A DNA stretch of 64,000 nucleotides from Candidatus Scatovivens sp. (GTDB lineage: Bacteria > Bacillota > Clostridia > TANB77 > CAG-508), in the NCBI GenBank assembly GCA_045646345.1, contig JAZRKN010000014.1, forward strand, positions 32,001-96,000, in the 5' to 3' direction. The position numbers and the translations under genes are program-made. Under the pieces are notes generated by a model that saw only the letters and a list, made by a program, of their open reading frames with translations, was not told the origin of the DNA and ran no database searches. Shown here in pieces: positions 51,773-54,942 of this stretch. The first letter of the stretch is position 1; each line of letters opens with the position of its first letter.

Positions 51773-54748
51773 ATGGGATTTGATTTGTTGCCACATAACC
51801 AAAAAGCATATGATAATGTAAAAACAATATTCAGAACACAAAATAGAGCTGCAGTAATACATCCAACAGGAACTGGAAAAGGGCGTATTTCACGTAAATT
51901 AATTGAAGATAATCAAGAAAAGAAAATACTATATATGTCTCCATCATTAGCTATTAACAATAGTTTAGAAAAAAGTTTAAAAAAACATGGAGTGGAAACA
52001 GAAAATCTAGAAATTTTTACTTATCAAAAATTAACAAGAATGACAAAAGAAGAAATTGAAGAATTAAAGTTTGATTATATAATTTTAGATGAATTTCACC
52101 ATTGTGGAGCTAAGGAATGGGGAATGCTTGTAAACAGATTGCTAAATGTTAATGGTGAGGCAAAAATTTTAGGATTGTCTGCGACACCTCTTAGATATAC
52201 TGCAAGTGGCATAAGAGATATGACAGAAGAATTATTTGGGAATGTAATAGCTTCGGAAATGTCTTTAGAAGCAGCTGTTGCTGGGGGAATATTAAATGAA
52301 CCTACATATGTAACAAGTATATATGCATATGAAGGAATTATAGAGGATTTAGAAAAGCAAGTAGATGAATTTGAAGAAAAAGGTAATAAGAAGAGAAGCA
52401 AAAGAAAAGAAATTGCCAAACAAGAATTAGAAAGATTGAAAAAATATGTACATGAAGCAATAACATCTCTTCCAGAGGTTTTAGAAAAATCAATACCAAA
52501 TAAAAGTGGAAAATATATTGTATTTTGTTCAAGTATTGAAGATATGAAAGCCAAAATTGAAGCTGCACCAGAATTGTTTAAAAAAGTAAATCCAAACATT
52601 GAAATTAGACAAGTTTCTAGTGATGAAAATGATGTAGCAAAAAATGAAAAAACCTTACAAAATTTTGAAGAAGATAATAATCCTGAAACTTTAAAATTAT
52701 TATTTTGTGTAAATATGTTAAATGAAGGTTATCACCTAAAAGATTTAGATGGTGGTATTATGATGAGATCAACTGCATCTCCAACTTTATATACACAACA
52801 ATTTGGAAGAATAGTTTCAGCTGGTAAAAAAGGTGATACTGTTTTAATAGATTTAGTAAATAATATAGATGCAATAGAAAATATTGTAAGATTTTATGAG
52901 AACTTATCTAGAGAAAGAAAAAATAAAGAAACAGGAAGTAAAGTTAGAAAATTCACTATGACACAAGAACTAAGAAGCATAGGTGAAGTTGTAAGAAAGA
53001 TAGAAAGTTTAGTATCAAGAAGAGCTAATAATATAGAAGTTAACTTTATGAAAAGACTAGGAATTTCTTTTGAAGATGCCAAAAAAATAATTGAAAGTGG
53101 AAAAGATGATTTAATAAGAGGTAGAGCAAACAATTATGATGGAATGTATGCATCAGAAGAAAAAGAGTCTTTAGAATTATTTTATGAAATGAGAAAACTA
53201 AGATTAAAGATGACATCTGAAATTGAAGTTGGAACAGAATCATATAACAAAAAATTAAATGAATATAAAAGAAAAAGAGATGAAGTAATAATTAAAAATA
53301 TTGGGCTTGTAAAATGGATGTTAAAAAATATTCCAGAATTACAAAAGTTTAATTATGATTCAGAAGAAGACAAAGTACAAACTGCTTTGAAATATTTAAT
53401 AGAAGCAGCAGATACATATAATCCTCAACTAAGAACAAGAGAAAACAAATCATTAAGATTTGATGAATATTTGCTAGTTTTTATACAATCAGGAATGACT
53501 CAAGAAGAAAGAGATATTGAATATGAGAAATATACCGAAGATATATTATCAGTCAAAGCAGAGCTTGAAGAAATATATGGAAAAGGTAAAGTAACAGATT
53601 CTCATATAGCGCAAGAAATGTTAACAAGAACAGTTGAAGCAATTGATAAAAAGCAAAGTAATTTTTTTAAATCTCATCCTTTTTATGAACTTTTAAGAAA
53701 AGAAGTACTAGCTTATAGAGAAGAGTTTGCTAAAGTAGAAATATATTGGGAAAAAAGAAAAGGTAAAGGTGAGATAAGGGAGAATGCTAAAGATATAAGA
53801 AAAAGAATTGCAATGGAGATAGATGATAATGACCCGTATTTATTAAAAATGACAATATTTCAAATAAAAAATGTATTTAGAAAATTGGAAGAATTGGAAA
53901 GCTATGATGCTATTGTTGATTTTGATATAAATGATTATTTTCTAGAAGATTCAGAAATAATTCAACCAGTAGGAGATAGTTATATATCAGAAGGCGTTTA
54001 TGTTGAAAAAAAAGAACCATATACTCAAGAACCACAAGCAGAAGAAGAATTTTTGAAGATTATGGAAAGAAGTGAGAATAGCTTTTTAAAAGTAGATTTA
54101 GAAGCTGTACTTAACACACTTAACGAAAAAGAACGAACAATAATAAAATTAAGATATGATTTAGGATTAAAAATAGAAGATGTTGAAAATGGACATAAAT
54201 TAATTAAAGATTATGGATCTTTGCATAAAGCAGAAAGACGTTTAAGACATCCAAGTAGAGCGAAAATGTTAGCACCATATCTTGGCACAGAGAGAACAAT
54301 ATTGGCTGCAAGAGGAAGAGTTAGAAAAAAAGCAACAACTGTAAATTATGAAAATAATAATAGTTTTGATGCTGCTTCAGGAGATTTAGAAAGTGTTAAA
54401 TTATCAGAAATTATTGAATCAGATGAATTATTTAAACACTTAAATGAAGCTGGATTGTGGTGTTTAAAGGACTTGGTTAGTATGACAGAAGAACAATTAA
54501 AATCTGAATTAGATTGTACAGATAAAATGGTTATAGAAATAAAATCTTTATTAGGGGCATATGGAGTAGAATTAAGTGATGAAGAGCAAGAGGATGTTAT
54601 AGCAGCTGACTTGACAGGAAGAAATCAAAGTTCAAAAGCAGAAACATTAAAAGCACTTATGCAAAAGAAAAAATCTCAAGAAGAAGAAATAGAACAACTA
54701 GTGGGAACAAAAAATAAAAGACAAAATTCAGGAGAAAGAGAGGATTAA
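51773..54748 (+). CDS. SF2 (DExH, ResIII-like) helicase fused to sigma70-like regions and an RNAP alpha-CTD-like domain
   Basis: HPTGTGK, DEFHH, SAT, NMLNEG, QQFGR; RDEVIIKNIGLV..EDKVQ..LIEAADTYNP; VLNTLNEKERTIIKLRY..RRLRHPSRAKMLAPYL; HLNEAGLWCLKDLVSMTEEQL..EIKSLLGAYGVEL. Confidence 0.8.
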   Translation: MGFDLLPHNQKAYDNVKTIFRTQNRAAVIHPTGTGKGRISRKLIEDNQEKKILYMSPSLAINNSLEKSLKKHGVETENLEIFTYQKLTRMTKEEIEELKFDYIILDEFHHCGAKEWGMLVNRLLNVNGEAKILGLSATPLRYTASGIRDMTEELFGNVIASEMSLEAAVAGGILNEPTYVTSIYAYEGIIEDLEKQVDEFEEKGNKKRSKRKEIAKQELERLKKYVHEAITSLPEVLEKSIPNKSGKYIVFCSSIEDMKAKIEAAPELFKKVNPNIEIRQVSSDENDVAKNEKTLQNFEEDNNPETLKLLFCVNMLNEGYHLKDLDGGIMMRSTASPTLYTQQFGRIVSAGKKGDTVLIDLVNNIDAIENIVRFYENLSRERKNKETGSKVRKFTMTQELRSIGEVVRKIESLVSRRANNIEVNFMKRLGISFEDAKKIIESGKDDLIRGRANNYDGMYASEEKESLELFYEMRKLRLKMTSEIEVGTESYNKKLNEYKRKRDEVIIKNIGLVKWMLKNIPELQKFNYDSEEDKVQTALKYLIEAADTYNPQLRTRENKSLRFDEYLLVFIQSGMTQEERDIEYEKYTEDILSVKAELEEIYGKGKVTDSHIAQEMLTRTVEAIDKKQSNFFKSHPFYELLRKEVLAYREEFAKVEIYWEKRKGKGEIRENAKDIRKRIAMEIDDNDPYLLKMTIFQIKNVFRKLEELESYDAIVDFDINDYFLEDSEIIQPVGDSYISEGVYVEKKEPYTQEPQAEEEFLKIMERSENSFLKVDLEAVLNTLNEKERTIIKLRYDLGLKIEDVENGHKLIKDYGSLHKAERRLRHPSRAKMLAPYLGTERTILAARGRVRKKATTVNYENNNSFDAASGDLESVKLSEIIESDELFKHLNEAGLWCLKDLVSMTEEQLKSELDCTDKMVIEIKSLLGAYGVELSDEEQEDVIAADLTGRNQSSKAETLKALMQKKKSQEEEIEQLVGTKNKRQNSGERED

Positions 54749-54750
54749 TT

Positions 54751-54942
54751 ATGAAATCAAAAATAAATAATTTTGAAAATATTAATACAATCGATCAATT
54801 TTTAAATAAATTAGAAAATAATCCTGAATTAGTAGATAATTTATCTGAAAAAAGATTAGATATTTTAATTGGTTATTATACAAATTTAACTCAAAAAAAT
54901 GAAGAAAGAATTAGTGAATTGAAAAGAAAAAATGCAAATTAA
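54751..54942 (+). CDS. Small helical protein directly downstream of the helicase-sigma fusion
   Basis: Starts 2 nt after the upstream stop, GAGG RBS, shared terminator downstream. Confidence 0.7.
   Translation: MKSKINNFENINTIDQFLNKLENNPELVDNLSEKRLDILIGYYTNLTQKNEERISELKRKNAN

Follow-up and report, generated by a model that had tools for sequence, protein, structure and literature searches.

What might a cell do with a single protein that joins a DNA motor, the parts of a sigma factor and a domain resembling the C-terminal domain of the RNA polymerase alpha subunit (alpha-CTD)? Promoter opening by sigma70 factors needs no ATP, and bacterial polymerase is remodelled by ATPases that are proteins in their own right. 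Neither picture accommodates a chain that unites a motor with a core-binding sigma module and an acidic alpha-like domain. Such a chain is encoded in the stretch of 64,000 nucleotides analysed here (the window), which comes from the uncultured clostridial order TANB77. Sequence comparisons suggest that the protein likely binds RNA polymerase and that it may be injected into another bacterium through a type IV secretion system. If it does bind polymerase, it would represent a new class of transcription factor, or else of inhibitor. We have found neither this fusion of helicase, sigma and alpha-like parts nor this way of hijacking transcription described, and the literature searched (top-ranked records, with few subscription papers and without supplements) contained no account of the fusion, nor of any type IV system from TANB77.

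The fusion is real. An earlier note, made from the sequence alone, had claimed that one reading frame joins helicase, sigma parts and an alpha-CTD-like fold, and the single 991-aa open frame and its orthologs bear this out. The exact protein is present in a protein collection, in a cluster of 11 members that all measure 991 aa and are 89-99% identical. Seven further full-length orthologs (993-1019 aa, 46-62% overall identity) were recovered, six by searching with the C-terminal half and the seventh, P0019, from 50% representatives, and a second strain retains the gene order, including the 63-aa gene downstream. Because of these same-length members, full-length orthologs and the second strain, a chimeric assembly, raised earlier as a possible artefact, is excluded. 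The fusion is also rare and patchily distributed, being present in 1 of 41 relatives and 1 of 401 genomes of the order, in both cases the source genome itself.

That genome (1.79 Mb, about 28% G+C, 96.7% complete) appears to treat the gene as native: its GC3 of 0.121 is close to the median for the genome, 0.125, and a comparison with the second strain gives dN/dS 0.29 over the whole gene. The gene is chromosomal, its neighbours are housekeeping and orphan genes, and no mobile-element genes were seen beside it. An AGGAG lies 5' of the frame at 51761-51765. The promoter candidate further upstream (Table 1) is singled out only by its position, because promoter-like sites number 25 where 23.3 are expected. 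A hairpin followed by a T-rich run likely closes the two-gene unit formed by the fusion and the 63-aa gene; a terminator scan found none, and this hairpin is too A+T-rich for that scan. Just beyond it lies a gene for a PIN_12 domain protein (55121-56128), with its own promoter-like site, which is kept in the second strain.

Table 1. Features of the fusion locus (positions in the window)
Feature	Position	Strand	Basis
Sigma-A-like promoter candidate, extended -10	51707..51735	+	10/12 consensus matches plus TG
991-aa fusion gene (P0001)	51773..54748	+	Open frame; 11-member protein cluster
SF2 helicase/translocase, ResIII type, aa 1-380, motifs intact	51773..52912	+	Pfam
Sigma region 2-like domain, aa 496-575; no tryptophan pair, core-binding face retained in part	53258..53497	+	Stand-alone sigma matches, alignment, pLDDT
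Region 3-like helices, fast-evolving 80-aa helical insert, 3.2-like linker with GVY motif	53498..54067	+	Alignment, hhalign
Sigma region 4, aa 766-838; helix-turn-helix shortened	54068..54286	+	phmmer, profile, hhalign
Alpha-CTD-like domain, aa 869-936; acidic, DNA-contact residues lost	54377..54580	+	Pfam, hhalign, profiles
Charged, helical tail at the C terminus; candidate signal for export or for binding the partner	54581..54745	+	Tail profile, model
63-aa partner gene, C-terminal half of a ~120-aa protein family	54751..54942	+	Family alignment; kept in second strain
Likely terminator hairpin, then T-rich run	54947..55008	+	-19.2 kcal/mol, z -5.35

The motor takes up the first 380 residues. 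Pfam recognizes ResIII (E 2e-17), Helicase_C (2.5e-9) and DEAD (1.9e-6), and the two RecA-like domains carry intact motifs, which confirms the SF2 helicase proposed from the motifs alone. Across nine orthologs, 220 of the 380 positions are invariant, and dN/dS between the two strains is 0.18, although from small counts. The closest solved folds are archaeal XPB and RadD, and in a fold search this generic helicase core was the only RapA-like part of the fusion. Clostridial ResIII helicases at 79 loci have a 34-43% identical core but other C-terminal repeats; none of these loci gave a region 2 profile match, and none gave region 4 or alpha-CTD at a domain E-value below 0.1.

In the sigma part, regions 2 and 3 match the libraries weakly and draw their support from intermediate relatives. 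Pfam finds no region 2 in the fusion, and hhalign to RpoD reaches only 3.5%. A region 2 profile built from the orthologs, however, scores 37.6 bits with one stand-alone sigma and 21.6 bits with another, and these two proteins themselves exceed the Pfam Sigma70_r2 cut-off. The stand-alone sigmas have Pfam regions 2 and 4 above cut-off plus a region 3 match, so the homology of region 2 is transitive, running through these intermediates. Region 4 stands more firmly, as originally proposed. A single sequence scores 16-17 bits with Pfam, below the cut-off of 24.1, but phmmer matches SigA chains at E 6.5e-4, the ortholog profile matches SigA at E 2.5e-8, and hhalign to RpoD gives a probability of 97.9. 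With regions 2 and 4 in order, the protein belongs by homology to the sigma70 superfamily, its region 2 link being transitive. It is not an RpoD: TIGR02393 scores 20 bits against a threshold of 354, regions 1.1 and 1.2 have no match, and the set of regions 1.2, 2, 3 and 4 above cut-offs, melting residues and -35 helix that marks RpoD is not present.

Conservation is uneven along this part. Region 2 of sigma70 binds core polymerase, and in the fusion it is the best-kept portion outside the helicase, with 56-71% identity in seven distant orthologs, 34 of 80 positions invariant, a dN/dS of 0.16 between the two strains (small counts) and a model pLDDT of 77-89, one loop excepted. The positions matching D403 and Q406 of E. 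coli sigma70, which are core-binding residues there, are invariant; E407 and other residues are changed, and the tryptophan pair that melts promoters through region 2.3 has been replaced. In distant orthologs identity is 24-50% in region 3, 12-31% in the 80-aa insert and 17-61% in the helix-turn-helix. Among the sigma parts, region 4 is under the weakest constraint (dN/dS 0.68 on 19 changes), and its helix-turn-helix is diverged and about six residues shorter. The -35 helix is thus altered, as had been noticed, but not by simple replacement, since residues are missing; P0019, the most distant ortholog, retains the full length. The flap-binding end of region 4 is kept in most orthologs, and its motif is lost in P0019.

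From where might such a sigma have come? In a quick tree the fusion groups with extra sigmas, apart from RpoD, on a long branch; about 23 extra sigmas score above all RpoD matches, and the GVY motif of the linker is common to the fusion and the extra sigmas. Because the sigma part is closer to these lineage-specific proteins than to RpoD, it is a derived, real sigma more than a mimic built from RpoD. In a model from nine sequences, confidence is good across most of two stretches, aa 491-700 and aa 881-930. Extra RpoD-like sigmas with helical tails were also seen at L218:3460-9999 and L219:3545-6532, some of them frameshifted or truncated in region 4.

The alpha-CTD-like domain presents a similar case of weak direct and stronger transitive matches. 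Its cut-out reaches E 0.016 with Pfam, below the cut-off, E 0.12-0.2 with RpoA chains and 39% with hhalign; against Pfam-positive repeats of relatives it reaches 4e-9, an E-value from a small set of 13 proteins, and the alignment with RpoA is ungapped. The fold assignment made earlier holds, the relatives' repeats giving the clearer matches. Net charge is -13 to -19 here, whereas the RpoA domain encoded by the same genome has -4. The DNA-binding positions of alpha-CTD in E. coli are R265, N268, N294, G296 and S299, and all five are changed, several to acidic residues. Its dN/dS between the two strains is 0.09 on 10 changes. Elsewhere in the window (58324-58719), a 131-aa orphan has a C-terminal end that looks alpha-CTD-like by eye, with no such Pfam match.

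Because the D403 and Q406 positions are kept while the melting, -35 and alpha-CTD contacts are lost, we infer that the fusion is a polymerase binder that has given up ordinary promoter reading. Docking through the sigma part, as first suggested, fits this pattern of a kept region 2 and decayed DNA-reading surfaces. The changed E407, together with P0019, in which the helix-turn-helix is kept and the flap motif is gone, weakens a uniform story.

The C-terminal tail and a secretion system of the lineage, neither of them part of the earlier note, hint that the protein acts in another cell. The 63-aa gene does begin 2 nt past the fusion stop (54751 after 54748), as described at the outset, and it does not have the amphipathic helix of its family. 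A single-sequence search found that family in 15 of 301 genomes of the bacterial family, an alignment search found it in 19 of 61 genomes of the genus, and none of 244 genomes of the class outside the bacterial family had it. Its members sit 3' of large proteins of dozens of kinds whose C-terminal ends are charged and helical, including proteins that combine sigma region 4 with alpha-CTDs (sigma4-alphaCTD proteins) and stand-alone sigmas. Among 39 loci picked by similarity to the partner, 35 held the partner by profile and 33 had an upstream frame within the locus; for 31 of these, no membrane helix was predicted in the portion covered. Because the partner's relatives follow so many different proteins, the evidence favours a chaperone over the anti-sigma that the earlier note had offered among its options; the family is not specific to sigma, so the gene is not a dedicated anti-sigma, and the immunity role on the same list is a possible one.

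The source genome holds one gene of this family and 15 of a second partner family that has the same amphipathic motif at its other end (six of the 15 were seeds). None of the 13 genes upstream of the second family encodes a predicted membrane helix, whereas across the genome 580 of 1,482 genes do; one of the 13 resembles a housekeeping synthetase. The fusion's own tail forms a helix at aa 952-983 in the model. A profile built solely from 30 other tails, with the query's family left out, ranks five orthologs 1, 3, 4, 5 and 7 among 1,491 C-termini; the same profile places the query tail 40th and P0003 116th, with the tailless control P0021 at 110th, and the tails of stand-alone sigmas score only -1 to 6.6 bits. 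An ending pattern, designed after the tails had been seen, occurs in 24 of 1,482 genes against 8 expected, and four of its five matches upstream of the second partner family were seeds. Three other gene pairs were noted: a 608-aa protein with a weak metallopeptidase match followed by a 149-aa gene of the second family (window 23021-25280), a BadF-type kinase-like protein followed by a short partner-family gene (62852-64003), and, on the same contig, a 1,916-aa protein followed by another such gene (G000:C14:96143-101893). The latter two large proteins end in the same four residues. With the partner genes and tails as guides, the other cargo proteins could be inventoried.

Other proteins of the lineage are likewise composed of polymerase parts. 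Of 101 genomes of the family, 18 have additional alpha-CTD copies, and 14 of 20 fetched loci encode sigma region 4 with one to four alpha-CTDs. A partner by profile follows seven of these 14 genes, three of those seven loci having been chosen via the partner. Three of the 14 proteins (L178, L194 and L188) begin with a helicase of the query type, forming one clade with it (support 99/95), and have the helicase, sigma region 4, alpha-CTD, tail and partner gene in common with the fusion. Unlike the fusion, they have no region 2 match, and because their alpha-CTDs retain the DNA-contact residues and a near-neutral charge where that of the fusion is acidic, they look like DNA readers and not core binders. 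Another genome (G477) has three genes side by side, one for a related helicase, one for a full extra sigma that ends in a helical tail, and one that is partner-like; in a further genome (G528) an extra sigma is fused to another domain. The fusion looks like one fixed product of such domain shuffling. Tail and partner are not universal: two sigma4-alphaCTD proteins of the source genome (C3:26174-27517 and C15:28190-29224) and some extra sigmas have neither.

A machine that could export such proteins is present. A chromosomal type IV secretion locus (G000, C14:133442-157354), 47 kb from the fusion gene, contains seven tandem VirB2-like pilin genes (six were tested, and all match PF18895), a PrgI-sized frame, VirB4, large membrane proteins and a cell-wall hydrolase. 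The VirD4 coupling protein lies on C11 among housekeeping genes, so that the VirB4/VirD4 machine to be expected for an effector with a chaperone exists in the same genome. A VirB4 ortholog at E 1e-160 or better is present in 145 of 151 genomes of the order (table count), and VirD4 in 30 of 31. The genome has one MOBV relaxase, on C1, and MOBP, MobL and MOBT relaxases were not found in it. We infer that this machine is linked to the tail-partner pairs. VirD4 itself (G000:C11:129170-131231) is read as two overlapping frames of 172 and 523 aa. Of 18 relatives of the genus, 16 have an ATPase frame of about this reduced length, while in the other families it measures 620 aa or more, which suggests a conserved split or recoding.

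The lifestyle of the order gives such a machine some context. The accessible text of PMC11680825 describes TANB77 as an uncultured order without many growth traits and reports a conserved Tad gene cluster for it; the source genome has a Tad-like pilus cluster (G000:C15:103137-117300) that is similar to that cluster as judged by gene order and size. In the portion available to us, the CheckM2 preprint counts TANB77 as one of the lineages that have small genomes and/or are hypothesised to live as symbionts or parasites. A search of the 96.7% complete genome for PurE gave no match; a ketoacyl synthase was found. No paper showing the order to be parasitic on bacteria turned up in the literature searched.

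On balance we lean, with somewhat less than even confidence, towards an exported, ATP-driven appropriator of polymerase that travels with a chaperone. The 63-aa partner would hold the fusion protein, and the charged tail would route it through the lineage's chromosomal type IV secretion system. Once inside a host or neighbouring bacterium, sigma region 2 could engage the RNA polymerase core there while the motor grips DNA and so makes up for the DNA engagement lost from the sigma part; the resident sigma would be displaced, and the polymerase stalled, stripped or relocated. The acidic alpha-like domain might soak up factors that bind the alpha subunit. The conserved region 2, the partner family behind unrelated large proteins, the high-ranking ortholog tails, the gene row in G477 and the secretion genes speak for this reading. 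Counting against it are the modest ranks of the tails of the query and P0003, the distance of the gene from the secretion locus, the MOBV relaxase, the sigma4-alphaCTD proteins and extra sigmas that have neither tail nor partner, the changed residues of region 2, the flap motif lost in P0019 and the amphipathic helix missing from the 63-aa protein. The wider proposal, that this common uncultured order of gut Clostridia parasitises bacteria by injecting, through a domesticated type IV secretion system, a set of tail-tagged effectors made from polymerase parts, the fusion being an ATP-powered sigma that seizes the host's polymerase and a bacterial sigma70 counterpart of motor-assisted promoter opening, we consider doubtful. 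If the protein is exported, it would give a testable handle on the lack of cultures from a prevalent, auxotrophic order, which may depend on a bacterial host in the way that Patescibacteria do.

The fusion might instead serve its own cell, as an alternative sigma with a built-in motor in which an XPB-like translocase opens or scans promoters and the small protein regulates it. Intact helicase motifs next to a region 2 without its tryptophan pair, the kinship of the motor with XPB and RadD, the full -35 helix kept by the extra-sigma relatives and the native codon use would all suit such a role. We nevertheless consider it rather unlikely, given the shortened -35 helix in a weakly constrained region 4, the presence of the gene in a single one of 401 genomes of the order, and a partner and tail that are common to proteins outside transcription.

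A defence or toxin-antitoxin module, in which the fusion shuts down transcription or moves along foreign DNA when a phage infects, the small protein quiets it and the alpha-like domain acts as a decoy for phage proteins directed against polymerase, would explain the patchy distribution. It would also suit the weak matches of the ResIII-type helicase to type IV restriction profiles, the PIN-domain gene that follows, and the sigma-like and alpha-CTD-like domains found in MzaA (a sigma70-like profile match) and PglW (alpha-CTD-like, according to the accessible text of PMC12839542). We judge it unlikely, since PADLOC matches only the helicase core of the whole protein and neither its C-terminal half nor the partner, searches for a nuclease or methylase domain found none, the neighbours are housekeeping and orphan genes with the PIN gene past the hairpin, and one partner family serves many different upstream proteins. 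Quite improbable, in our view, is that the sigma and alpha folds are generic scaffolds left by shuffling from which polymerase contact has gone. All library matches of these domains do fall below family cut-offs, Foldseek ranks SigA 48th (E 1.2e-3, rmsd 26), and the sigma branch is long; yet regions 2, 3 and 4 remain in order, with the strongest sigma constraint on region 2.

How does the fusion compare with what is known? It shares with RpoD and SigA the order of regions 2, 3 and 4 and a region 4 that matches SigA structures, and it differs from them in having no region 1.1 or 1.2 match, no tryptophan pair, a shortened -35 helix, an 80-aa insert, and helicase and alpha-like domains in the same chain. 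ATPases such as RapA, HelD and Mfd, and phage appropriators such as AsiA, remodel or redirect polymerase, but unlike the fusion they are separate proteins without sigma domains. With the Mza, BREX and type III/IV restriction systems only helicase-core matches were obtained, without a full-length profile match, and no partner genes of the PglW and MzaA systems were recognised. Polyvalent proteins of conjugative elements and phages, as presented in the accessible text of PMC5512222, are large multidomain proteins for which delivery into a recipient has been proposed, where they would influence transcription or defence; the fusion, in contrast, is chromosomal, with native codon use and no adjoining element genes, and the word sigma is absent from the main text of that paper. 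The secretion system finds its closest parallel in the Patescibacteria epibionts, which, according to the accessible text of PMC12102498, have pilin-array type IV systems, mostly without a relaxase. A chromosomal VirB4, a tandem array of VirB2-like pilins and a reduced genome are alike in both, although that text does not mention Clostridia, and here the bearer belongs to a clostridial order whose host is putative.
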